IMG/VR virus record: IMGVR_UViG_3300045391_001060
Span: 3,605 to 67,604 of that record
Direction: 5' to 3' (one strand)
From: a virus
Lineage: Duplodnaviria > Caudoviricetes
DNA: 64,000 nt
Positions 34,228-46,263 of this stretch are shown one piece after another. The first letter of the stretch is position 1. Every line of letters begins with the position of its first letter. The translations under genes and the position numbers were made by a program. The notes beneath the pieces were generated by a model. That model did not search any database. It was not told the origin of the DNA and saw only the letters and a list, made by a program, of their open reading frames with translations.

Positions 34228-35077
34228 TTACTTTCTCCTTCTTTGCAACGTTGCTTTTGATGATCTCACCGGACTCAATGGCCACTAGTTTCCGGTAAGA
34301 GGGATCGACGATGAACTCTGGCAGCCTTCCGGCGTCCGGAGGTCGTCGAATCTTGGTTACGTAATTCGGGTGAGGCCCGATACGCATAGCATACTCGATC
34401 CGGCGCTCGGGCTTCTTGCCCATGGTCTTTTTCTTCTCTCTGATGATCCGGATAAAGGTATGCCCGATGATGTCGCAGGCTCCATCGACGTAGGAGCCGA
34501 CGCTGGGTAGGACACGCGCCGAGACCGAGGGGTCGATCTCGTTGTCCTCGTTGTCCCCTTCGCCACCGAACTCGCGCAGGTGGGCAAGGAAGACCACGTT
34601 ATACAGGTCGATAAGCTCGCGGTAGTTACCGAGCCAGGTCTTCATATCACCCGAGAGTTTACCCCACTTCTTGAACCCCTGGAACGGTTCGTCCTCGTCC
34701 ATCCGGAAGTGCTCTCGGACGGCTTTCATGCACAGATCCTGAAGACCTGTGATCTGGTCAAGAACGATCGTCTTGAAGTCCTGCCCGTCTCGGAGCCACC
34801 AGTACAGCTCGATGAAGTCGTCCCAGGTCCGAACCTGTGCGACCTTTACGTCCTTCATCTTCCTGACCGTCTTCAGGCCCTTCTCGTTGTTGATGTCGAG
34901 GAAGAGGATCGGGCCGGGAAACGTCGAGGCTGTCTTGGTCTTTCCCGTTCCGGCCTTCCCGTAGAACATCGCGACATGGTTCTCCTGGAGGTCGGCGACG
35001 CTCTGGATACCGGCGACCACAGCGGGGATCTTGACCCGCTTCGCGCGCTGTTTGAATTTACTCGAAATCTTCGCCAT
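34199..35077 (-). CDS. AAA_24 / Sak4-like recombination ATPase
   Basis: YGKAGTGKT, VLDQIT, FLAH motifs. Confidence 0.8.
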   Translation of the reverse strand: MAKISSKFKQRAKRVKIPAVVAGIQSVADLQENHVAMFYGKAGTGKTKTASTFPGPILFLDINNEKGLKTVRKMKDVKVAQVRTWDDFIELYWWLRDGQDFKTIVLDQITGLQDLCMKAVREHFRMDEDEPFQGFKKWGKLSGDMKTWLGNYRELIDLYNVVFLAHLREFGGEGDNEDNEIDPSVSARVLPSVGSYVDGACDIIGHTFIRIIREKKKTMGKKPERRIEYAMRIGPHPNYVTKIRRPPDAGRLPEFIVDPSYRKLVAIESGEIIKSNVAKKEKVNGKKLRKAR

Positions 35078-36062
35078 TCTTGGAATCTCCTTGGAAGTCT
35101 TCTACCGTGTAATCGCGCTTCCTCACGAAGTCCGCGTCCAGCCCACGAACCTCGGCCTCACAGACAGTCCGATAGTCGCAGGTCTTGCAATTGAATCCAC
35201 TCATGTGCCGGGGAGCGATCTTCTCCTTGCTGAGCGCCTTGAAGATAACCGCGTCGGCTCGCGCGTCCTCCACGACCGTCTGGATCATGCGCTTGGACGG
35301 AGCCGGGAGAGACACGCGCTCAAAGAAAGTGCGCTCCTTGCCTTCCAGGTGTTTGAGGAACGCTCGATAGGGCTTCTCTCGTAGCCCGTTGTCCTGGATT
35401 GCCTGGCGATAGGTATGTGCGTCGGTGTCGATGTTCGCGCGCTTCGATAGCTCGCCGTTTTTCAGAAGGGCCGGGACCGTCGGCGCTTTCATCCGACCGT
35501 AGTCCCAGATGATGCCATCGAGCTGGTCACCCCTCGGGTGCGTCTGGTTCCAGTTCCAGAAGTAAAGCACCGTCTGGATATCCGAGAACCTTTCTTCGGG
35601 GCCGGGCATGACCTTGTGGAACTTGTGATCCATGAGGAACCGGCGGCCAGACTTGTCCTCTACGATCTTGTCGAGCTTCGAGAGCAGGCGGATGTCGGGC
35701 GTCAGGTCGGCGATGATCGCGATCTCGCTCGCGATGTACTTGAGGTTATCGTGCCGATAGCGGCGCAGGTAGCCCTCGAAGATCCGCTCGCAGGTAAGCG
35801 GTACGTCACCGAACTCCTCCTGCTCTTCCCTGAAGAGCCTCTTCCACTCCTTCTTGACTCGTCGCAGGACCTTCCACGGATCGAGGTAGTAGCCGTCGTA
35901 CAGCTTCGCCTTGATGTAGGCGTCGAGCATCTCGTGGAGGATCGTCCCGACGAACGCGGGGCGGCTCGGCCGCTTGCGGCGTAGATGCTCACGGTACCGA
36001 TAATGATGTGCCCTCGGGCACTTCCGGTAGAGCTTGATCTCGCTGTACGAAACGCTTGGCAT
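35058..36062 (-). CDS. Cas4/RecB-like PD-(D/E)xK exonuclease
   Basis: SYS...CPR, GTILHE, KLDKI...LMDHK, C-terminal CxxCxxxxxC. Confidence 0.8.
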   Translation of the reverse strand: MPSVSYSEIKLYRKCPRAHHYRYREHLRRKRPSRPAFVGTILHEMLDAYIKAKLYDGYYLDPWKVLRRVKKEWKRLFREEQEEFGDVPLTCERIFEGYLRRYRHDNLKYIASEIAIIADLTPDIRLLSKLDKIVEDKSGRRFLMDHKFHKVMPGPEERFSDIQTVLYFWNWNQTHPRGDQLDGIIWDYGRMKAPTVPALLKNGELSKRANIDTDAHTYRQAIQDNGLREKPYRAFLKHLEGKERTFFERVSLPAPSKRMIQTVVEDARADAVIFKALSKEKIAPRHMSGFNCKTCDYRTVCEAEVRGLDADFVRKRDYTVEDFQGDSKNGEDFE

Positions 36063-36087: not shown

Positions 36088-38634
36088 CTACGCCGCTTTG
36101 CGTTCTTCTGGAATGACGTATTTCACGTTGCCCTTTTTGCCCCACGGGCCGATCTCGACCTCACCCTCCATCGGGATGTCGAGCTTGATCTTGAACACCT
36201 TCAGGAGCCTGGGCGTCCGGATGATCCTGATAACCTGGGGAAGAACGTCGTCGTCGCAACCGTCGCGGACGATCATAAGCAGCGCGTCGTGGTGTTCACC
36301 GACGAGCTTTAGCTTTGTGCGGTCGATTGTCTCGTGGATCTCTACGAGAACTGCGGCCTTCCAGTCCCCGATTGTGCCTTGGACCGGGCTGTTGATCGCC
36401 TGGCGTTCGGCCTCCATTCTTTTTCCCTTGTCGCCAGCGTAGATCCCCGGCAAGCGGCGTCTCCTCCCGAACATGTTCCTCACGAAGCCGTTCGCGTGCA
36501 CCAGCCTCTTCTGTCTGTCGTGCCACTTTGGCAATTCGCTGTATAGCTGAAAGTAGCCCTCGCGGCAGGCGTGGGCCTCGTCCCATGTCGGTTCCCATCC
36601 GTACTTCTCCTTGGCCGTCTGGATGAACTTTTTCTCGTACATCCCATAGACGTAGCCGAAGTTGATCGCCTTTGCTTTCTTGCGGCCTTCCTTCCAGCCG
36701 TCCCAGATCTCGATGGCCTTATCGTGGCCTACGTCGAGCAGCTTCTCGCAGGCGTCGAAGATCCGGAGCCTCTCACCTGTGAGCTTATAGGCGGTGTCGA
36801 TTACGCGGTCGGCATAGTCGCCGCTGATATATCCGGCCGCGATAGCGAACATGAGAGTTCGCCAGTGGATGTCGATGTTCTCCAGGAAGCACTTCCGCAT
36901 CTCCAGGTCGCGGGAGATCTGCGCGATGATCCTTAGCTCCGCTTGCGAGATGTCCGCTTGGACGAAGTGCCAGCCGGGGGGAGCGATGACCAGATTTCTA
37001 ACCGAGCCATCCCTGGGTATTGAATGTATCCGAGAAGAATACCGTCCGGTAACGGTTCCATGCACTTTGTAGGAGATAAACAAGGTTTCTCCAACCATAC
37101 GCTTACGAAAGCCTTCGACGTAGGTGGAATGGAACTTCGTGACTTCCCGGTACTTGAGGAGTTTGTCGACAAGTGGATGTTTCCCCTTGAGGTCTATGAG
37201 CGCCGTTTCAGATGTAGAAGGCGCGCCTTTGGCCGTGAAGGTTGTGCACTTGATTCCGAGGTCGTCGTAGAGGACGACTCCGACTTGCTTCGGAGCGCTC
37301 CACTTAACGACGCGCCCAGCCATCTCGTTAAGCTCCGCGTTGAGCGAGATAGCCTGCGCTCTAAGATCGAGAGCAAGCGTATCCATTTCTTGAACGTTGA
37401 TAGTCTTGCCCTGAAGTTCAATGTCCTCCATTGCCCGCACCGCAGGCATAACAAGACTATAGAACAGCCGCTCGAGTTCAGGTTCTCTACGGAGACTGGC
37501 TCGAAATACTGTCCGCAGACGCAGCGTATATCCGCAGTCACGCGCATTATACTGGTAGAGCTTGAAAGGATCGACATTGCCTTTCTTCTCCGCTGTCGTT
37601 AGATCGTACTCGGGAACGTCGAGGTACTGCCTGGACATGGACTTAAGGTCATGATCCTCGTTCTCGTCGAGCACGTGACTCGCGAGCATCGTATCGAAAG
37701 TGATCTTAAATCGACGCTTCGTGTACGTCTGGAGCCAGAGGTTATCGAACTTGCCGTTCTGAGCTACGCCGTGTTTCTGGTCCGCCTTCGCGATCCCGGC
37801 GAGCATTCGGATCAGGAACTCAAGAGCATTTCCACGACTCCACGGCGAGCCTCGGTAGTAGTGGAGCTTCTTTGGGTCCTTTCTCCAGGGGTACCAGCCC
37901 GGTACCATATTCGGGATTACCCAGGTCTTGCCGGGGAGCCCGATCCCGACGCAGTTTATTCGACCGAGCTTGTCATGCGGAAAAAGGCTGGTTGTTTCAA
38001 GGTCGAATGAGAAAGACGTAGCCGCACGGAACTCCCGTAGGAACTTATGAAGGTTTCCACGACGAACGATCGACCAAGGCACCTCGGTGCTTTTAACCTC
38101 ACCGCGTAGCGTCCGCGCAAGCCGGGCGATGTCCGCCTTAAAAGCGGGCTCGATCCCCGGATCGTAGAGCATGGCGGCGGGGTGATAAGAAACATAGCCG
38201 CGATACTTCTTGGATGGATCTTCGATGATCGTGCCGTGATGCTGCGAAACCTTGGCCTTCCCCTTAAACAGAGCCTTTGTCGGAGTCGCTCCAAGAGATA
38301 CAACGATTTCAGGCTTGACGCGGTCGATCTCGTAATCCAGGTACTCTCGACACGCTTTGATCTCGGCCGCCGTGGGCTTACGATTATCGGGTGGTCTACA
38401 GCGAACCGTGTTGGTGATAAAGACCTTGGTGAGGTCATTGGCGGCGAGTTCCGCGCGAAGTCGCTTTCCCGAAGCACCCTGAAAAGGTTTTCCTGTCTTC
38501 TCCTCCTCGCGACCTGGAGCTTCACCCACGACCATGATTCGCGCATCTCTCGGTCCCTCCCCGGCGACGCAGACAGTCCCGCTCGTAGTCTTATGGAGCG
38601 GGCACTTCTGACAGTGTGGATTCAGCGACGGCAC
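36088..38634 (-). CDS. polA: Family A DNA polymerase with N-terminal family-4 uracil-DNA glycosylase domain and 3'-5' exonuclease
   Basis: CxxC...GEAPG...CRPP...HPAA (UDG); FDLETT, NGKFD, YNARD (exonuclease); DISQAELR, KAINFG.VYG, HDAL (polymerase). Confidence 0.92.
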   Translation of the reverse strand: MPSLNPHCQKCPLHKTTSGTVCVAGEGPRDARIMVVGEAPGREEEKTGKPFQGASGKRLRAELAANDLTKVFITNTVRCRPPDNRKPTAAEIKACREYLDYEIDRVKPEIVVSLGATPTKALFKGKAKVSQHHGTIIEDPSKKYRGYVSYHPAAMLYDPGIEPAFKADIARLARTLRGEVKSTEVPWSIVRRGNLHKFLREFRAATSFSFDLETTSLFPHDKLGRINCVGIGLPGKTWVIPNMVPGWYPWRKDPKKLHYYRGSPWSRGNALEFLIRMLAGIAKADQKHGVAQNGKFDNLWLQTYTKRRFKITFDTMLASHVLDENEDHDLKSMSRQYLDVPEYDLTTAEKKGNVDPFKLYQYNARDCGYTLRLRTVFRASLRREPELERLFYSLVMPAVRAMEDIELQGKTINVQEMDTLALDLRAQAISLNAELNEMAGRVVKWSAPKQVGVVLYDDLGIKCTTFTAKGAPSTSETALIDLKGKHPLVDKLLKYREVTKFHSTYVEGFRKRMVGETLFISYKVHGTVTGRYSSRIHSIPRDGSVRNLVIAPPGWHFVQADISQAELRIIAQISRDLEMRKCFLENIDIHWRTLMFAIAAGYISGDYADRVIDTAYKLTGERLRIFDACEKLLDVGHDKAIEIWDGWKEGRKKAKAINFGYVYGMYEKKFIQTAKEKYGWEPTWDEAHACREGYFQLYSELPKWHDRQKRLVHANGFVRNMFGRRRRLPGIYAGDKGKRMEAERQAINSPVQGTIGDWKAAVLVEIHETIDRTKLKLVGEHHDALLMIVRDGCDDDVLPQVIRIIRTPRLLKVFKIKLDIPMEGEVEIGPWGKKGNVKYVIPEERKAA

Positions 38635-39101
38635 TAGAGCGTCCGACGCTTCTGATCGAACTTCGCCATCGCCTCTTGGATATCAGCTGTCCATCGGACG
38701 ACCGTGACCCCGCTCTGCTGCAAGAGAGCTATCGGCGAGATATCTCGGTACTCCTCGGCGTAGAACACCTGAATGATCCCGGCGTTGATGAGTAGCTTCG
38801 CGCACTCCCTACATGGTGAGGCGGTGGTATAGAGCGCGGCGTCCTTGGTTCGGATTCCGTGTCGAGACGCAAAGGCTACCGCGTTGGCCTCGGCATGGAT
38901 AGTGTCGAGGCAGGGATTCGTCGGGTTACAGTTGGTCGGCGTACAGTGCGGTATCCCCGCAGGAGCGCCGTTGTAGCCGGTAGAGAGTACCCGACCGTCG
39001 TAGGCTAGCACCGCGCCCACCTGCCGACGTAGGCACGTCGAGCGCTGCCGAACGACGAGCGCCATCTCCATGAGCATTTCTTCTCGGCTGATCCGGGTCA
39101 T
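38634..39101 (-). CDS. dCMP deaminase-family protein
   Basis: RSTCLRRQVGAV, GYNG, HAEANA, PCRECAK. Confidence 0.9.
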   Translation of the reverse strand: MTRISREEMLMEMALVVRQRSTCLRRQVGAVLAYDGRVLSTGYNGAPAGIPHCTPTNCNPTNPCLDTIHAEANAVAFASRHGIRTKDAALYTTASPCRECAKLLINAGIIQVFYAEEYRDISPIALLQQSGVTVVRWTADIQEAMAKFDQKRRTL

Positions 39102-39943
39102 ACGGCTACCCTCGCGTACATGGTATTCCAGTCGTTGACGAAGCAGTGCATCGAGACGCAGTGAAACGTGAACAGCCCGAGCTGAACAGATTTCCAGTCG
39201 ATCCAGTAGCCCGGTCCCGCGTTCACGGCGAGTAGCCCCAGCTCTTCCTGCTTCTTCCGCAGCTGATCCAGGAGCCAGTAGGTCAGACGTGTCGAGAGAT
39301 ATAGGTCATCCCGAAAGTGCCGAACGAAGTCGCACGACCGGATGAAGTAGGACGTGTGGAGATATCCGTTGCGGAGAATCCAGTGGTAGCCCAGGCTACA
39401 CGGTACGCGCTCGCCATGGACAACGCCGGTGTCCTCCGGGAACCAGACAGGAAAATACGCTTGTCGGGTAAGCGGATCTCCCAGGAGATGATCGATGACA
39501 TCGTTGAGGTCCCCGTATCGGTAGCGAATCCCTAGGTGCGGTAGATCGTCTCCGGTCAGCATCTGACCCGCGCGTTTCGGCCAGTAGCGTTCCATGTACG
39601 TATGCGAGAAGGCTTCGCCCTCGGTTCGGAACTTATCGGCCGAGAGAGCCCAGGGCCAGTTCCTCCACTGGACGCCAGGGTTCAGCGGCTTTCCGCCGAC
39701 ACGTTCGAGAAAGTGATCCTCGGCCCAGGGTAGGTTCGGCATGATATCCCGCTGTAGGGCCGGGATGTCCTCGTTCCCAAGTTTGACCTGGAAGGAGTGA
39801 TTGAGGATCTCCTTCATCCGCATTTCTGGCTTTGTCGAAACGTCGGTCGATTGCCAGCGGGTCCCGCGAACCTCGTAGGCCGAAGTCCGCATGAGTTCGC
39901 TCGTCCACTCGACGGCCTTGGCAAAGCTCGGTAGTATTCTCAC
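39098..39943 (-). CDS. Thymidylate-synthase-fold enzyme 1 (dCMP-type specificity residue)
   Basis: Start moved to GTG 39943 (RBS GGAGGA, GTGA overlap); TRQA, VPC, RSCDFVRHFRDD, SMH motifs. Confidence 0.8.
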   Translation of the reverse strand: MRILPSFAKAVEWTSELMRTSAYEVRGTRWQSTDVSTKPEMRMKEILNHSFQVKLGNEDIPALQRDIMPNLPWAEDHFLERVGGKPLNPGVQWRNWPWALSADKFRTEGEAFSHTYMERYWPKRAGQMLTGDDLPHLGIRYRYGDLNDVIDHLLGDPLTRQAYFPVWFPEDTGVVHGERVPCSLGYHWILRNGYLHTSYFIRSCDFVRHFRDDLYLSTRLTYWLLDQLRKKQEELGLLAVNAGPGYWIDWKSVQLGLFTFHCVSMHCFVNDWNTMYARVAV

Positions 39944-40323
39944 CCTCGTCCTCCCGGTACCTGGATCAGAGACTTCTCGATCTTCTCGAACAAGAAAGCG
40001 ATCCCCTGTGGCGTCCGTACCGTCGCGCGAAATTGGTAGGCGTCGGGAACGAGATGGCCGGGGATCGCGACGATGAATTCCCTCGGCTGCATCTCCCCCA
40101 GCTCCCACTGACGTGCGTTGCCATCCTTATCATACTTGTCCTTGGCTAGGACGTAGATATGCAACGACTCGTCGGGCGGCTGTGCCCCAAGATGAAGTAC
40201 CTGCCCGTTAGCCGGAAGGTGCGCGATTACTCGCTGGAAGCCTTCGGGGGTGGTGACTTCTTGGCCGAGGAGAGGACAGCGAAAGAGGCGTCGAGCTGGA
40301 CCGATTTTGATGGGCTTATCCAC
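39940..40323 (-). CDS. Hypothetical protein
   Basis: 127 aa between kinase 2 and TS1; start uncertain. Confidence 0.5.
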   Translation of the reverse strand: MDKPIKIGPARRLFRCPLLGQEVTTPEGFQRVIAHLPANGQVLHLGAQPPDESLHIYVLAKDKYDKDGNARQWELGEMQPREFIVAIPGHLVPDAYQFRATVRTPQGIAFLFEKIEKSLIQVPGGRG

Positions 40324-40673
40324 TGTAGTAATTCCTCACTTAGAGCGATCACCTGTTTTCCCATGGTCTGCTGTCCGAGCTTCACGAGATTGTTCTGTGG
40401 CTCGCGGAGCAGAATGAACTTGTCGAACGGCGGATCGACCGTCGGATGCATAGCCATCCACTTCCGGACGGCGCGCGGTACGACCACGCCTTCGATGATC
40501 CAGTCGCCCGGCCGGTCGAACCACTCGGCGACCCGGCGGCTGTACTCGCTCCACTCCAGGTTCTCTGGGAGTAGGCTATCGGTCTGCCAGAGCGGAATAC
40601 CAAAAACCGCCGAGAGGATCGAGCCGACCGTGCTCTTGCCGCTCTGCGGCGGCCCGGTGATTACGATCCTCAT
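40227..40673 (-). CDS. P-loop nucleotide kinase-like protein 2
   Basis: Start at ATG 40673; RIVITGPPQSGKST, WIIEGV; 3' end overlaps the next ORF. Confidence 0.65.
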   Translation of the reverse strand: MRIVITGPPQSGKSTVGSILSAVFGIPLWQTDSLLPENLEWSEYSRRVAEWFDRPGDWIIEGVVVPRAVRKWMAMHPTVDPPFDKFILLREPQNNLVKLGQQTMGKQVIALSEELLQWISPSKSVQLDASFAVLSSAKKSPPPKASSE

Positions 40674-41617
40674 GGCTCGAAGTCGGACAGAAGGCTGTAG
40701 GATCGTAGAAACCCAGCTGCTCTCGCGTGCCCGCCCCCGCCGTACTGAACGGCGATCTCCGATACGTCCACGCCACCCGGCTCGGAGCGTAGCGAGAACT
40801 GCCGTCCATTCGGTGTGTCGTAGTACGTGGCCGCGAACGGCTGCTTGTACGGATCGTTGGGGTCGGCGGATTTGCGCCCCTCGAAGTTCCGCGAGCAGAG
40901 GATATGTCCTGCGTCGGAGGTCATGGTGTACGGCAGGTTCGCGACCGGGACGAGATATCCGCCGAGGCGCATCGGTCGAGTGGAAACGAGGATCAGCTCC
41001 TCGATATCTTTGAAGTGCTTCCGCTCGATTGCAATTCCTCCGTCGATCATCAGATTCCGGGGGTTCGGATGCTCGAATCCCTCGATCAACGAATCCCAAA
41101 CCTCGAAGTCATACGGATAGGAGAACAGACACGCTTGGATCTCTCGCGTGTTCGGAAGCTTGAACTTCCAGAGGTCCCGGTCCTCGACGTGGTCGATGAG
41201 TTTCGGTCGCGGTTCGCCGGGATTGAAGAAGTCCCAGGTAAGACCGGCACCGGAGCGATTCATGTCGAATTCCAGCATGACCCTGGAGAATGGATCTCCG
41301 TAGCGAACCATGCTCTCCCAATCGGTTCGGCTAAATCCCCAAACGTGCTTGACGTCGTTCATGTCGATTGCCGCCGACTTGTGGTGATCGAGCACCATAA
41401 TCGACTTCGCCTTCTTGGCTAGCTCGAGCATGATCTCCTTCTTGTAACAGAAGTCCACGAAGATGACGTCCCGGTCGGTGACGTCGGGCGGCGGGCGCTG
41501 GTAGACGCCGGGATAGAAGTCCACCGCGTCTGCGCCGAGCGCGCGGCGAACGACCCACGCGGCGGTGAATCCGTCCGCGCAGTTCCCGTGGTAGATGCAG
41601 AGAATTAACGGATTCAT
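40670..41617 (-). CDS. DHH/DHHA1 phosphoesterase
   Basis: YHGNCADG, DF, LDHH, EDRDLW, GGGHARAAGF. Confidence 0.85.
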   Translation of the reverse strand: MNPLILCIYHGNCADGFTAAWVVRRALGADAVDFYPGVYQRPPPDVTDRDVIFVDFCYKKEIMLELAKKAKSIMVLDHHKSAAIDMNDVKHVWGFSRTDWESMVRYGDPFSRVMLEFDMNRSGAGLTWDFFNPGEPRPKLIDHVEDRDLWKFKLPNTREIQACLFSYPYDFEVWDSLIEGFEHPNPRNLMIDGGIAIERKHFKDIEELILVSTRPMRLGGYLVPVANLPYTMTSDAGHILCSRNFEGRKSADPNDPYKQPFAATYYDTPNGRQFSLRSEPGGVDVSEIAVQYGGGGHARAAGFLRSYSLLSDFEP

Positions 41618-41955
41618 TTGTGGTTCCTCTCCAATCCCCTGAAGGCAGAGGGGACGGCTTTCGGGTTAGGGAAGAAGTGCTTCGCGTTCATCTGGGCCCA
41701 CTGAATCTCGCGCTTGGTCGAAAACCCGATGTACTTCGTCTCATCGGAAATCAGGACCACGGCGTCGGACTCCAGGATCTTCCGAAGATGCACGAGGTCG
41801 AGAATGATCTTCTCTGCCTCCGTGACTTCGTTCGGCTCTCCGTCGCTGGAGATGAACGCCACCGAGTAGACGATGTGTCCCTCCGCCGTGAGCTTCCGGT
41901 TAGCCTCGTGGTAGAGGTCTTTGAAACGGGTCGATCCGATCAGACAGAGCTTCAT
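41614..41955 (-). CDS. Nucleoside 2-deoxyribosyltransferase-like / DUF4406-like Rossmann protein
   Basis: KLCLIGSTRF...H.RKI.ESDAVVLI...YIGFST.REI..A. Confidence 0.6.
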   Translation of the reverse strand: MKLCLIGSTRFKDLYHEANRKLTAEGHIVYSVAFISSDGEPNEVTEAEKIILDLVHLRKILESDAVVLISDETKYIGFSTKREIQWAQMNAKHFFPNPKAVPSAFRGLERNHK

Positions 41956-42103
41956 TTTCTTTCTCCTTCTTGATTAGGTCATGGTCGAACTTATCAGGGT
42001 CGAAGAACATGAGCGGGCGCTCAGAGGAATACATGCTACGGAAGTTGACAGTAACGGACTTCCGCCTAGTCTTCCTCGACCGCTTTTTTGCGGCGCGTGA
42101 CAT
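41900..42103 (-). CDS. Possible small basic protein
   Basis: 67 aa filling the gap between TS2 and the NDT-like gene, with overlaps at both ends. Confidence 0.3.
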   Translation of the reverse strand: MSRAAKKRSRKTRRKSVTVNFRSMYSSERPLMFFDPDKFDHDLIKKEKENEALSDRIDPFQRPLPRG

Positions 42104-42860
42104 AGGTATCTCGCTGGTGGTGGAGCTTCGGCAAATCGTACCCGAGTTTGCGGTACAACGGGTCGATCAATTTCACGAGCTGCTTCGGCTCGCCGCGCTC
42201 CCAATTAAGCCGGTGCATGACCTGCTCGGGAGAGAACGGGAACCACTGATCCTCGGTATACGATGAGCGGAGGAGCCAGCGAAGTCCACGCTTGAAGAAG
42301 TCCCGGTCGGTGTCGTAGACGAACTTGACGAAATCCTCCGGGTCCCAGTACTGAAGCAGGACGGGAAGGTACACGCCGCTGAGGTGGATATTCGCGAACC
42401 GGAACTTGACGATGTCCGGCTCGAGACCCAGCTCCTTAAAGACCCAGTTCAGGAGGACGATGTCGGCGTGGAACTTGAAGATCGCTTCAGTAGAACGGTA
42501 GTGAATCTCCGCGACTTCCAGTTGGGGGCGCCGCATTCGTGAAACTACTAAAGACAATAAGCACCACCCCTGAGACCGTGAATTCTTTTGCTGTCCACGA
42601 AACGATAGGGCTACAGAGGTCATATGGTGGCCCCTGCCCCGCGCGCGTCGATCGAGGATGGACTTGACCCGCTCGAACTCCTCCGGATTGATGTAGTTCT
42701 TCCGGAGCTGTCCGTCCTTGTTGGCTTTGTAGCCAATATCGTCGTAGGACAGATTCGGGAGTTTCTTCTGTTCCCATGTGAATCCATTGAATAGCTTGTA
42801 GAGACCACCCCTGAACGTCGGCTCCTCGCGGACGAGACGCCGAATGAGACGGAGCATCAT
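42066..42860 (-). CDS. Divergent thymidylate-synthase-fold protein 2
   Basis: GWCLLSLVV...HYRSTEAIFKFHAD...NIH aligns with the TS motifs PCH...QRSCDVFLGLPFN...DTH. Confidence 0.55.
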   Translation of the reverse strand: MMLRLIRRLVREEPTFRGGLYKLFNGFTWEQKKLPNLSYDDIGYKANKDGQLRKNYINPEEFERVKSILDRRARGRGHHMTSVALSFRGQQKNSRSQGWCLLSLVVSRMRRPQLEVAEIHYRSTEAIFKFHADIVLLNWVFKELGLEPDIVKFRFANIHLSGVYLPVLLQYWDPEDFVKFVYDTDRDFFKRGLRWLLRSSYTEDQWFPFSPEQVMHRLNWERGEPKQLVKLIDPLYRKLGYDLPKLHHQRDTYVTRRKKAVEED

Positions 42861-42861
42861 G

Positions 42862-43467
42862 TCAAACCCCCGATGCGATGCGTTTGTAATTGATTACTTC
42901 TTTCCGCATGAACTGTTCGTAGAGATCCTCGGAGTTGAGCCCGGCGGTACGGACTAGCGCCCCGAACCAATAGAACATGCCACGGACTCGATGAGTGAAC
43001 TGCTCCTCGTCGCGCTCGACCCGACACGTCTGTTTCCAGGGTTTGTTCTTCAGCATCTCGGCGACCTGCAGAGTCGCGAGGATCATAAACCGTGCGTTGG
43101 TCTCCTCGTCGGGGAAGACAAACGAGTCGTCCTTCGACGCCTGGACGACGATATCGAGCCGGTCTCCCCAGCGCAGATCCTCCTGGATGAGCGTCGCGTC
43201 GTATCCGGCCAGCAGGGCGAACTCGATCAGGAAGTGGAGAACGTCGGCCAGCTCCTCGGGCCGCTCGGCCGGAGTCGCGCCTAGGAACTCCGACAGTTCG
43301 AGATTGATCCAGTGGAGACCTTTGTGCAACTCGACGCAGCCCTCTCGGGTCTTCCAGTCGGCGTGTTCTACCGCGTCGCGGTGGATCATGCCTAGCTCGA
43401 ACTGGACTGTTCGGAAGGCGGACGAGGACTTGGCCTTGCTCTCGAAGATCTTGGCGAGACGATCCAT
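42862..43467 (-). CDS. All-alpha NTP pyrophosphatase (dimeric dUTPase/dCTPase/MazG superfamily)
   Basis: ELSE...EELADVLHF; KPWK...K...NYKRIASG. Confidence 0.7.
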   Translation of the reverse strand: MDRLAKIFESKAKSSSAFRTVQFELGMIHRDAVEHADWKTREGCVELHKGLHWINLELSEFLGATPAERPEELADVLHFLIEFALLAGYDATLIQEDLRWGDRLDIVVQASKDDSFVFPDEETNARFMILATLQVAEMLKNKPWKQTCRVERDEEQFTHRVRGMFYWFGALVRTAGLNSEDLYEQFMRKEVINYKRIASGV

Positions 43468-44000
43468 TACAGTCTCCTATGATCCCAGAACTCCCTTACC
43501 AGCTGGATGGCGTTCGTGCTTTGGGGATCGTTCTGGTAGTTGTAGAAATGAAAGGGAATCCCGGCGTCGCCTAAGTGCATGAAGAAAGCGTCATAGGCGA
43601 GGATGAGCGAGCCGAAGTGCTCGTGCACTCCTTTCATCTGTTCCTCTTTCTGGACGCCCTCCTCGAGCCAGGCCACCGGCGGACGGCAGTAGATCAGAAG
43701 GATCGCCCGGCCCCGGAAGGCGGCGATGACTTCCTCGATCGTCCAGGGGGATGGCCCCTCTTGACGGACTACTGGACGATAGATGTGTTCTGATATAATC
43801 GGGTGGCGATCGGCGATGACGTTGAGGCCGGTCACCGACTGGTATCGCAACCACTGATTCATCCAGTCGATCGTCTCGATGTCGCCGGGTGGGCCCGATC
43901 TCTTTATCAGGAGAGTGGGTCGGCCGGTACCCTTAAGCAGCTTCTGGGCAAGAGTCGATTTACCAGACCCATCGGGTCCTTCGAGAACTACCAACGGCAT
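43467..44000 (-). CDS. dNMP (thymidylate-like) kinase 1
   Basis: Start at ATG 44000 (RBS GGAG); VLEGPDGSGKST, DRHPIISEHIY, LIYCRP. Confidence 0.8.
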   Translation of the reverse strand: MPLVVLEGPDGSGKSTLAQKLLKGTGRPTLLIKRSGPPGDIETIDWMNQWLRYQSVTGLNVIADRHPIISEHIYRPVVRQEGPSPWTIEEVIAAFRGRAILLIYCRPPVAWLEEGVQKEEQMKGVHEHFGSLILAYDAFFMHLGDAGIPFHFYNYQNDPQSTNAIQLVREFWDHRRL

Positions 44001-44160
44001 GTGTCTGTCTCCGCAAGTTTTTTTGATTAGCGCACCGGAGTAAGATACGCCTTCGCTGCGGCGGTTGGAAAGTGAATGTTCACCGCCACGAAAAAGAAAG
44101 GGCGAGGTTGTAGCCTCGCCCAAATCAGAATCGACATAACCGTGTACGGAGATAGACGGC

Positions 44161-46263
44161 GTGAAGAATAGCGCAAAAGTTCGCGGACGTAAACTGGACA
44201 GTGTAGCGGCAGCGCGGGATTGGTTAGAGTTGGGGATTCGCCCCGTTCCGCTCCGTCCCGCCTCTAAGATACCCTCTGGAGGGAAGGGGTGGAACTCTCT
44301 GCGGGTCAGTGAAAAAACTGTCGCGCAGTTCTTTAAGCAAGGCGACAACCTCGGCGGCCTCTGGGGAGAACCCAGTAACTGGATCGTTGATATCGACCTC
44401 GACTGGGACGAAGCCGCGCACTTCGCGCAACACTATCTACCAGAGACCTTTACATACGGTCGGCTCAGTCGTCCCAGTTCACACTTTCTCTACCGCTGTA
44501 AAGGTGCCGTCTCGAGTTCCAAGGTAATTGACAAGACTAAGGTCATCGAGATTCGCTCCACCGGCTCACAGTCGGTTCTCCCGCCGTCGCTTCACCCTGA
44601 CAATGAACGCTACGAGATCAACGACTCCCACCCGTTCACGACTCTAACCAAAGCCGAGCTGGAACGGCTCGTCGGCCACGTCGCGGCCGCAGCGGTGTTA
44701 CTTCGGAACTTCCCGACCGAGGGCGGCCGTCACGACTTTATCCACTCTCTGACCGGCGCTCTGATGTGGAGCGGTTGGAAAGAGGACGAGACAGTCAAGT
44801 TTATGGAAGCCTTCCTCGCCTGCATTAGCGAGGACGACGACGAGCCGGGAGATCGGAAGCTCACCGTCACGAATACAATCGAGCATTTCAAGAAGGGCGA
44901 CCGGATTGCCGGCTGGAGAATCCTCTCCACGTTCGTGCCACCCGAAGTGGTGAAGGTCGCTCGCGAGTGGCTAACTCCGCCGAAGAACTACCAGACGCCA
45001 CCTAAGCTGGTGGCCGGGGAAGTCACAGTCACGATCCCGCCGATCGACAAGGCACTGGTTGACGCACCGGGTATGGTAGGCGAGATCGCTCGGTGGTCTG
45101 CCAAAAAGTCCTACCTTCTGCAGCCGTCGTTCGATCTAGCCGTCGGTCTGATGTGCACGGCTCTCGCCTCGGGTAACAAGTACATCGTTCAAGGTTGGGC
45201 AACCCCGCTTCAACCATACTTTATGCTCCTGGCTCCGACGGCTGCGGGTAAGGGATCGGCTCTCGACTGCGTGTACGAGTTTGCCGCGAAGATTAAGATG
45301 GGTAGCGCGGTATTCCAAGGGTTCCAATCCTACTACGCCTTGCTCGATAAGCTCAGCGAGCCACCGGCTATGGCGTGCTGGCTCTGGGACGAAGCGGCAA
45401 GGCGTTTGAAGGCGACGAAGAACGCAGCCTCGTTCGACTACCAGATCATCACATGGCTCCTCGCGCTCTACGGTCGTGCGAATACGCACGTACCTGCGTT
45501 TCCCGGACGCAAGACAGAGATCCCCGCGCTAGACCGGCCGTGGCTCGGGCTCCTGGCGGCCGCTCAACCGGCGCAGCTAATCGAATCGGTGACGGTGTCC
45601 GACCTCGCTATGGGCTTGCTTAATCGGTTCATCCTATTCGATTCTGGCGACGGCGCACCGAAAGCGAACACCGGCCGAAGCGACGTGTTCCCGTCCTCGA
45701 TTATGAAGACTGCTAAGGAGATGATGGAGTTCGAGCCGAAGCATTTCCCTCAGGAGATCATCTTCGAGGATGGTCCGACCTATGCTATGTTTACGGACTT
45801 CGATGAAGAGGCGCGGAGGCATGCGTCGAGTGAGGGCGAGAACGAGATCTGGGGCCGGGCTAATCAGAATTCACTCATCGTCGCGGGGATCGCGGCAGTC
45901 GGAGTGAATCCTCGTAAGCCTGTCATCTCAGCGGAGATTGCCGACTGGGCGATAAACTTGATCCGCTGGAGTATCTCCTGCTGGACAGCTCGAATCGGGG
46001 AGAGCACCGCACGTACCTTCCGCGAGCGCGAGTCCAAGACAGTCGAACGCTATATCAGGAATCCCCAGAAGTACGCTCACCGCGCCTCGCCCAAGCACCG
46101 CGACTTCCTCAAGCGCGGCCTAATGCCCTTCGTCGTTCTCCAGAAACTCTGCCGCCATCTACAAGCGCGGGAGTTCTCAGAGATTCTTGACCAGTTAGTC
46201 GAGGCACAGCTAGTTGGAGCTGGAGAAGAGAACGACGTGGAATGTTACTGGGCTCTCCAGTAG
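44161..46263 (+). CDS. Bifunctional primase-polymerase fused to a P-loop helicase-like domain
   Basis: N-terminal DIDLD, SHFLY, SVLPPSLHP (Prim-Pol); APTAAGKG and WDEA (Walker A and B). Confidence 0.8.
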   Translation: MKNSAKVRGRKLDSVAAARDWLELGIRPVPLRPASKIPSGGKGWNSLRVSEKTVAQFFKQGDNLGGLWGEPSNWIVDIDLDWDEAAHFAQHYLPETFTYGRLSRPSSHFLYRCKGAVSSSKVIDKTKVIEIRSTGSQSVLPPSLHPDNERYEINDSHPFTTLTKAELERLVGHVAAAAVLLRNFPTEGGRHDFIHSLTGALMWSGWKEDETVKFMEAFLACISEDDDEPGDRKLTVTNTIEHFKKGDRIAGWRILSTFVPPEVVKVAREWLTPPKNYQTPPKLVAGEVTVTIPPIDKALVDAPGMVGEIARWSAKKSYLLQPSFDLAVGLMCTALASGNKYIVQGWATPLQPYFMLLAPTAAGKGSALDCVYEFAAKIKMGSAVFQGFQSYYALLDKLSEPPAMACWLWDEAARRLKATKNAASFDYQIITWLLALYGRANTHVPAFPGRKTEIPALDRPWLGLLAAAQPAQLIESVTVSDLAMGLLNRFILFDSGDGAPKANTGRSDVFPSSIMKTAKEMMEFEPKHFPQEIIFEDGPTYAMFTDFDEEARRHASSEGENEIWGRANQNSLIVAGIAAVGVNPRKPVISAEIADWAINLIRWSISCWTARIGESTARTFRERESKTVERYIRNPQKYAHRASPKHRDFLKRGLMPFVVLQKLCRHLQAREFSEILDQLVEAQLVGAGEENDVECYWALQ

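Follow-up and report, generated by a model that had tools for sequence, protein, structure and literature searches.

What does a tailed phage do with two proteins of the thymidylate synthase (TS) fold, both bearing the mark of enzymes that act on cytosine nucleotides, when it codes for no ordinary thymidylate synthase? The question is raised by a densely packed row of genes at positions 36088–44000, all on the minus strand, in a window of 64,000 nucleotides that covers bases 3605–67604 of a single IMG/VR virus record of 67,604 bp (100% complete according to CheckV). The first-pass annotation of this window had combined these genes into a pathway by which the phage would replace C with a base modified at the nucleotide level, either through two TS-catalysed steps or through a heterodimer of the two TS-like proteins, here named TS1 and TS2. 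We confirm the observation and find partial support for the interpretation. The two are distinct proteins of the TS fold, and each retains the nucleophilic cysteine, the phosphate-binding arginine and an aspartate at the residue by which cytosine is chosen over uracil. They belong to a widespread, replisome-linked pyrimidine-nucleotide module of tailed phages, present in cultured phages. Their genes are placed as follows:

42066–42860, minus strand: TS2, a diverged TS-fold protein; no Pfam match, PF00303 included; phrog_34294, a family of unknown function.
39098–39892, minus strand: TS1, a TS-family enzyme of the cytosine type; phrog_160, 1e-23; 17.0 bits with the Pfam TS family (PF00303), below its gathering cutoff of 24.3.

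The kinship of the two proteins can be seen only by structure. When their profiles are compared, nothing but the Arg-Ser...Asp motif aligns, with negligible probability, and a phmmer search of TS2 against PDB sequences gives no match. The structure predicted for TS2 from 39 homologues has a pLDDT (predicted local distance difference test) of 91.5, and nearly all the Foldseek matches listed for it belong to the TS superfamily: T4 dCMP hydroxymethylase is the best, and HY126 dCMP hydroxylase, MilA and ThyA are among the others that lead. Both proteins display the hallmark of the fold: a nucleophilic cysteine in the central sheet and, some 20 residues further along, the phosphate-binding Arg-Ser motif, with residues that are invariant in both families. 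In TS1, Cys165 is encoded at 39398–39400 and Asp196 at 39305–39307, with 20 residues from the cysteine to the motif; in TS2, Cys100 lies at 42561–42563 and Asp133 at 42462–42464, for a spacing of 22 residues. The first-pass annotation had given precisely these codons and spacings, had placed the aspartates opposite Asn177 of Escherichia coli ThyA, and had called for the structure prediction that now bears out its choice of fold; cysteine and aspartate alike are invariant across each family.

The active site of TS1 was mapped by alignment with E. coli ThyA, T4 gp42 and the Xp12 TS. TS1 retains ThyA's Arg126, Cys146, Arg166, Ser167, Cys168, Asp169, His207 and the Trp80/Trp83 pair, and it departs from ThyA at Arg127 (Gln), Leu143 (Arg), His147 (Ser or Thr), Gln165 (Ile), Gly173 (His), Asn177 (Asp) and Tyr209 (Phe). 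The mapped features are invariant in 38 homologues; the conserved core reads Cys165, Arg185-Ser-Cys-Asp188 and Asp195-Asp196, with C165, R185, S186, C187, D195 and D196 strictly invariant. TS homologues specific for dCMP are marked by an aspartate at 177, and contigs that carry modified cytosine are enriched in this residue (PMC8670742; PMC13326640); in such contigs position 147 is the second most discriminating (PMC8670742). The latter is Thr in T4 and Pro in Xp12, and position 165 is hydrophobic in these two enzymes as well. With its catalytic cysteine and its aspartate at the Asn177 position (Asp179 in gp42), TS1 resembles the gp42 type. The acidic residue that this type has at the Leu143 position is replaced by an invariant arginine (Arg162), and the Glu58/Glu60 general acid is missing too, Asn53 being aligned to Glu58 in an N-terminal half where the alignment is uncertain. 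Two features of ThyA itself are lacking: Asn177, for which Asp196 stands in TS1 and Asp133 in TS2, and, in TS1, the closing segment, i.e. the last 50 residues or so (the protein ends about 12 residues past the His207 motif, where E. coli ThyA has about 55 more).

In TS2 the conserved residues are Cys100, Tyr121-Arg122-Ser-Thr124-Glu125 and Asp133, and Lys48, Tyr56, Cys100, Tyr121, Arg122 and Asp133 are invariant across 62 sequences, the most distant at about 20% identity. The arginine pair at the ThyA 126/127 position is absent, and so is the conserved tryptophan pair. Since no counterpart of this folate-binding pair is found among its conserved residues, TS2 may have lost the ability to bind folate.

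Four further genes of the cassette are found again in related phages:

43467–44000, minus strand: Tmk-like deoxynucleoside monophosphate (dNMP) kinase, first gene of the cassette; phrog_761 'thymidylate kinase', 2.7e-15; weak matches to thymidylate kinases of the PDB.
42862–43467, minus strand: all-alpha nucleoside triphosphate (NTP) pyrophosphohydrolase of the dUTPase_2 / MazG-PRA-PH type; PF08761, 1.3e-6; phrog_12184, 2.8e-15.
38634–39101, minus strand: Zn-dependent dCMP-family deaminase, overlapping the end of TS1; PF00383, 7.5e-23; phrog_174, 6.5e-51.
36088–38634, minus strand: DNA polymerase I, a fusion of uracil-DNA glycosylase (UDG), exonuclease and PolA; PF03167, 1.5e-31; PF01612, 3.7e-14; PF00476, 4.4e-64.

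Open reading frames (ORFs) and family searches agree with the contiguous minus-strand row that had been described. Neighbouring genes abut or overlap, so that translational coupling across the cassette is plausible. The pyrophosphatase has dCTP and dUTP as candidate substrates, and the translation of the deaminase carries the HAE and PCxxC motifs. The polymerase joins an N-terminal family-4 UDG-like domain to a 3′-5′ exonuclease and a family A polymerase. This UDG-like domain (listed at 36088–36600, minus strand, read from 38634) contains GEAPG, HPA and four cysteines spaced as for an Fe-S cluster; as the hallmarks of family 4 are retained, it may be an active uracil glycosylase rather than a relic.

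The synteny search that had been suggested for the TS1/TS2 pair shows this phage to be one of many carriers. Homologues of TS1 number more than 4600 (E below 1e-10), and the TS2 profile gathers 340 clusters at 50% identity. The order kinase, pyrophosphatase, TS2, TS1, (deaminase), UDG-PolA, Cas4, AAA_24 is that of Pseudomonas phage PMBT14, Yersinia phage P744 and the metagenome-assembled genome MW202455. It recurs in metagenomic contigs with distant members of TS2, and in Brevundimonas phage Strzyga, where the 'hypothetical' gene ahead of TS1 matches TS2 at 99–100% probability. The position of the kinase is unchanged in related loci, a PRA-PH gene fills the pyrophosphatase slot and the UDG-PolA fusion is likewise downstream; the deaminase is present in 64 of 80 related loci and absent from Strzyga, MW202455 and locus L005. 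Serratia phage Serbin shares the order as far as UDG-PolA; its TS1 and TS2, like those of several further Pseudomonas and Serratia phages, are at most about 250 bp apart. A diverged form is found in Mycobacterium phage Muddy and Gordonia phage Troje, whose genes run in the same order with a hypothetical protein of about 300 residues at the TS2 slot: against the TS2 profile, the family of Muddy gp47 (a 28-member alignment) reaches 95.9% probability (E=6e-9), its Tyr, Cys, Arg and Asp falling in register, and Troje gp51 reaches 94%.

Variants of this layout deserve mention. In MW202455 a ThyX gene stands inside the cassette, between pyrophosphatase and TS2 (L003:1839-2495), which means that the TS1/TS2 pair is not needed there for ordinary thymidylate synthesis. 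A third, compact TS2-like ORF of some 190–215 residues, absent from the window, directly follows TS1 at L113:9187-9828 and at equivalent places in L110–L117; it retains the cysteine and the Tyr-Arg-Ser-x-Glu...Asp motif. In a contig with a distant TS2 homologue of 418 residues, a family-2 glycosyltransferase and a radical-SAM protein come after UDG-PolA (L118:10924-12538), possibly as an extension of the cassette towards DNA hypermodification.

How the two genes depend on each other was followed in 80 IMG/VR loci found with TS1 and, conversely, in 10 IMG/VR loci found with TS2 and four contigs with distant TS2 (a search restricted to a narrow TS2 alignment returned 11 loci). TS2 lies upstream of TS1 on the same strand in 58 of the 80; one has a diverged TS2-like ORF, four have no upstream sequence, four have a C5 DNA methylase at the TS2 slot, and about 13 place TS1 in a different context. 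TS1 without TS2 is thus seen in at least 17 loci with a full upstream flank. TS1 is found downstream of TS2 in all 10 reverse loci and in all four distant contigs. TS2 depends on TS1; TS1 does not depend on TS2.

The loci without TS2 are of two sorts. At L028:5399-6655, L037:5842-6963, L041:3892-6054 and L064:4864-6084 a C5 cytosine DNA methylase occupies the TS2 slot while TS1 and the deaminase are present; one of these methylases carries an intein, and three of the loci have an asparagine-synthase-like amidotransferase upstream. No such methylase is found in the 58 TS2-positive loci. The four may be a single lineage, and mutual exclusion between TS2 and the methylase is therefore only a lead. 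At L082:6950-8309 and about 12 similar loci the TS1 family is represented at 44–50% identity, with kinase, pyrophosphatase, deaminase and PolA absent nearby; eight of these roughly 13 loci have a gene for an NT5C-type 5′-deoxynucleotidase after TS1, and the contig measures 219 kb in one case and 250 kb in another.

Between TS2 and TS1, the window holds four more genes:

41614–41955, minus strand: small ORF of 113 residues, possibly DUF4406 / nucleoside 2-deoxyribosyltransferase (NDT)-like; accessory insert.
40670–41617, minus strand: DHH/DHHA1 phosphoesterase; phrog_4771, 5.6e-102; accessory insert.
40227–40673, minus strand: kinase 2, a small P-loop kinase-like protein of 148 residues; accessory insert.
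39940–40323, minus strand: DUF7352 protein; PF24043, 3.9e-5, under the gathering score; accessory insert.

They were at first counted among the genes of the pathway. We reject them as core members, for they are rare in related loci: jointly they occur only in the two closest relatives. The NDT-like ORF has its own slot in four of the 80 loci (those two relatives and two more), DHH is found in eight at varying positions, and kinase 2, like DUF7352, has clear homologues in the two closest relatives only. They are lineage-specific accessory inserts in an interval that is variable in other phages too, where a homing endonuclease or small ORFs are found, and that amounts here to up to 2.2 kb of unrelated genes. 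Two gene labels of the first-pass annotation, both among the inserts, prove weaker than stated. 'NDT-like' comes down to DUF4406 at E=0.07 and language-model (atlas) neighbours at 0.86–0.89, with no match in the PDB; the 'second kinase' matches other proteins in its P-loop region only (AAA_18, adenylate and shikimate kinases). The DUF7352 ORF overlaps the end of kinase 2, which makes its start uncertain.

On either side, the cassette is bordered by one further gene:

35058–36062, minus strand: Cas4-like PD-(D/E)XK exonuclease, downstream of PolA; context.
44161–46263, plus strand: Prim-Pol/DUF3987 primase-helicase, divergent from the cassette; PF09250, 1.6e-12; context.

The Cas4-like nuclease is followed by an AAA_24 protein and an SNF2 helicase; relatives have a PDDEXK_1 or Cas4 gene in the equivalent position, with phmmer matches in 52 of 80 loci. 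The divergent Prim-Pol arrangement is repeated in loci L005 and L006. In the 160-bp intergenic region between Prim-Pol and the kinase, upstream of this first gene of the cassette, we noticed a GC-rich hairpin of 8 bp with a run rich in T after it (44100–44121, minus strand). Promoter and terminator scans of the operon gave nothing above chance, PADLOC had no meaningful match for six cassette proteins, and megablast of the locus against phage records returned no match.

What, then, does the module make? Six-frame searches of the whole record found no ThyA (PF00303), ThyX, DHFR or C5 DNA methylase, in keeping with the earlier remark that no Asn-type ThyA was in sight. Our preference, a tentative one that comes close to an even chance, is for a module that modifies cytosine at C5, or remodels pyrimidines, before replication, with TS1 in charge of a folate-dependent step and TS2 an orphan second enzyme acting on a cytosine nucleotide. 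TS1 would add a one-carbon unit to C5 of dCMP in a folate-dependent manner, as indicated by its retained folate contacts, Trp-x-x-Trp and Asp169. The product would more probably be hydroxymethylated than methylated: in TS1, as in T4 gp42, the C-terminal segment that closes ThyA for hydride transfer is missing, and no DHFR is encoded by the phage. The kinase would phosphorylate this product, the pyrophosphatase would return competing dCTP or dUTP to the monophosphate pool, and the cognate polymerase would incorporate the 5-substituted cytosine, probably only in part, with the deaminase diverting some of the pool to the thymine/uracil side. TS2 would be a second, independent enzyme, probably attacking C6 of dCMP or of the TS1 product, a step as yet undescribed for the TS fold. 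The NDT-like, DHH, kinase 2 and DUF7352 proteins would stay outside the core pathway.

Several results weigh against this preferred reading. TS1 has arginine at the Leu143 position, not the Asp or Glu correlated with hydroxymethylation, and asparagine at Glu58 (again in the region of uncertain alignment). The Tmk-like kinase, the dUTPase-like pyrophosphatase and the dCMP deaminase are also compatible with a plain supply of thymidylate. As the first-pass annotation had noted, no glycosyltransferase was recognised (there is none among 30 scanned ORFs of the early region), and ORF scans together with the six-frame C5 methylase search revealed no other DNA-level modifier in the phage. Literature searches (PMBT14, P744, Muddy, HY126, actinophages) yielded no report of unusual DNA in the cultured carriers. 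Finally, the genome (window positions 1–64000) very strongly avoids 6-bp palindromes: their pooled ratio of observed to expected counts (O/E) is 0.58, as against 1.01 for non-palindromes. GAGCTC is found twice for 36 expected, CCGCGG twice for 33, ATCGAT once for 29 and ACCGGT once for 27. CCCGGG and CGTACG are nearly absent too, 27% of 6-bp palindromes are below 0.3 O/E, and 4-bp palindromes are not avoided. The pooled 6-mer values compare as follows:

this genome: 0.58
PMBT14: 0.71
Strzyga: 0.79
Muddy: 0.80
Xp12 (all 5-methylcytosine): 0.88
T4 (glucosylated hydroxymethylcytosine): 0.96

Virion DNA therefore seems exposed to ordinary type II restriction enzymes. Such avoidance in the carriers lowers, albeit indirectly, the odds of a complete, protective replacement of cytosine, and so strong an avoidance of C-containing sites tells against the claim, made at first, that the phage replaces C. 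This indirect result would still allow partial modification, as it would a purely metabolic role.

Comparison with known systems helps to delimit these possibilities. The hydroxymethylcytosine pathway of T4 has a similar enzyme set (gp56 dCTPase/dUTPase, gp42, gp1 dNMP kinase and cd deaminase), all of it pre-replicative, and the likeness of kinase, pyrophosphatase, TS and polymerase logic to T4 that had been proposed does hold. T4 gp42 agrees with TS1 in having aspartate in place of Asn177 and in its shorter C-terminus. Here, however, the genes form one cassette adjoining a family-A polymerase, the kinase is Tmk-like and not gp1-like, TS1 has Arg rather than Asp at the Leu143 position, no glucosyltransferase is present and TS2 comes in addition. 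Moreover, this genome avoids restriction sites, which T4 does not: a pyrophosphatase and a kinase are there, as for full replacement of dCTP in the manner of T4, yet the O/E values of the two genomes, an indirect measure, lie far apart. In the 5-methylcytosine system of Xp12 and PaMx74 an Asp177-type TS homologue adjoins a deaminase of the dCMP family (bioRxiv 10.1101/2024.12.05.627091), and the same pairing here raises the possibility of a deaminative route to thymine nucleotides. The Xp12 TS, which is about 26% identical to TS1 over 90 residues, differs in being of full length with its C-terminal segment; Xp12 has no TS2, its DHFR gene is two genes from the TS, just past the deaminase, and its polymerase gene is about 5 kb away. 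Neither the C-terminus in TS1 nor a DHFR in the genome is found here as an Xp12-type methylase would have them, although the host DHFR could substitute. In the contigs with modified cytosine from MetaGPA work, dCMP deaminases are enriched, and no more than 3 kb separates them from TS, PRA-PH, DNA_pol_A and exonuclease domains (PMC8670742; bioRxiv 10.1101/2024.12.05.627091), an arrangement that the present cassette shares and Xp12 does not. Of seven deaminase-linked Asp177 TS homologues assayed, five make 5-methyl-dCMP, and one deaminase was shown to convert 5mdCTP to dTTP (bioRxiv 10.1101/2024.12.05.627091).

Two other systems use the TS fold on cytosine nucleotides. The flavin-dependent 5-hydroxy-dCMP synthases (RB69 gp48, DLP3 gp80, HY126 AfhB) act on dCMP without folate chemistry. 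Their signature, the change of Asp169 to Asn (PMC13326640), is absent here, with Asp188 in TS1 and Glu125 in TS2, both nearly invariant, and there are no arabinosyl or glycosyl transferases; we reject this assignment. Among PDB sequences, TS1 matches best with MilA, the CMP 5-hydroxymethylase of mildiomycin synthesis (E=0.03, Asp aligned). The partner of MilA, MilB, a hydroxymethyl-CMP hydrolase of the NDT family, finds a possible parallel in the NDT/DUF4406-like gene of the cassette, a weak assignment for a gene present in four of 80 loci; MilA and MilB differ in that they serve antibiotic synthesis in bacteria and work on ribonucleotides.

The chief rival, unlikely in our view and still one to be reckoned with, is a thymidylate route that bypasses dUMP and leaves the DNA canonical. 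TS1 would convert dCMP to 5-methyl-dCMP, the Zn deaminase would turn this into a thymine nucleotide, TS2 might also deaminate through a covalent Cys-C6 adduct, and the Tmk-like kinase and dUTPase-like pyrophosphatase would complete the path to dTTP. The four annotated enzyme types are all in keeping with dTTP synthesis, the phage lacks both ThyA and ThyX, the avoidance of palindromes suggests unprotected DNA, and the reactions just cited for phage deaminases and TS homologues count in favour of this route. The absence of the Zn deaminase from some carriers leaves room for TS2 at that step. It must be set against this that in documented cases of the Xp12 type 5-methylcytosine also fully replaces C in DNA, that a reductive methylase would be expected to come with the C-terminal segment and the DHFR missing here, and that the ThyX of MW202455 would make the route redundant. 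Nor do we know of any precedent for a TS-fold deaminase. Plain thymidylate synthesis, with TS1 a diverged dUMP-methylating ThyA and TS2 an unrelated accessory protein, is what the GenBank labels of PMBT14, Serbin, Muddy and Troje imply ('thymidylate synthase', 'thymidylate kinase', 'dUTPase', 'dCMP deaminase'), and the palindromes are compatible with it. We hold it to be very improbable: the aspartate opposite Asn177 is invariant, the changes at His147 and Gln165 are common to dCMP enzymes, TS1 scores under the Pfam TS threshold and lacks the C-terminal segment needed for hydride transfer, and TS2 is itself a TS-fold protein with residues of the cytosine type. Thymidine hypermodification (dUMP hydroxymethylase, 5-HMUDK, aGPT-Pplase) was rejected too, both TS-fold proteins being of the Asp type; kinase 2 matches generic P-loop models only, and the scanned ORFs contain no match to aGPT-Pplase.

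TS-family enzymes are dimers, whose active sites take Arg126′ and Arg127′ from the partner subunit. This gives some appeal to an obligate TS1/TS2 heterodimer in which both proteins would contribute to one composite active site, as if the homodimer of ThyA had become asymmetric: TS2 has no arginine at positions 126/127, TS1 retains one in a Thr-Arg-Gln motif, the two genes are always neighbours, and TS2 was not once seen without TS1. We nonetheless consider the heterodimer put forward at the outset improbable as an obligate partnership. TS1 does without TS2 in the 17 or more loci described above (four with methylase at the slot, about 13 in another context, of which eight with NT5C), and such one-way dependence argues against it and suggests that the action of TS2 follows, or runs parallel to, that of TS1. 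The invariant Cys/Arg/Asp/Tyr set of TS2 would be needless in a purely structural partner, and in this phage the two genes are separated by unrelated ones.

We come back, then, to the preferred module and to its most unusual member. No published pathway with two Asp-type TS proteins was found, and literature searches gave no paper characterising TS2. It is conceivable, if somewhat doubtful, that TS2 is the founder of a phage-wide, folate-independent family of the TS fold with a new reaction on a cytosine nucleotide. It would convert the 5-substituted dCMP made by TS1 into an undescribed DNA base or, by covalent catalysis, carry out a deamination completing a dCMP-to-dTMP pathway; the family would reach to the therapeutic mycobacteriophage Muddy (gp47) and to many phages of Gordonia, Pseudomonas, Serratia and Yersinia. 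What is new here is the one-way dependence of TS2 on TS1, the inclusion of the Muddy gp47 family among the relatives of TS2, the substitution by a C5 methylase and the quantitative comparison of palindromes.

Base modifications of phage DNA decide the outcome of restriction, CRISPR and other defences, and they affect sequencing and phage therapy. The cassette is common, a phage used in therapy carries it, and the databases call its central enzymes 'thymidylate synthase' and 'hypothetical protein'. The existence of cultured carriers makes the chemistry of TS2 easily testable. Once known, the product of TS1 and TS2 should reveal either a new modified base or a new thymidylate route, and in both cases a new type of reaction for one of the best-studied enzyme folds. 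If the proposed reaction of TS2 is true, many well-studied phages would turn out to have a DNA base, or a route to thymidylate, that has so far escaped notice.

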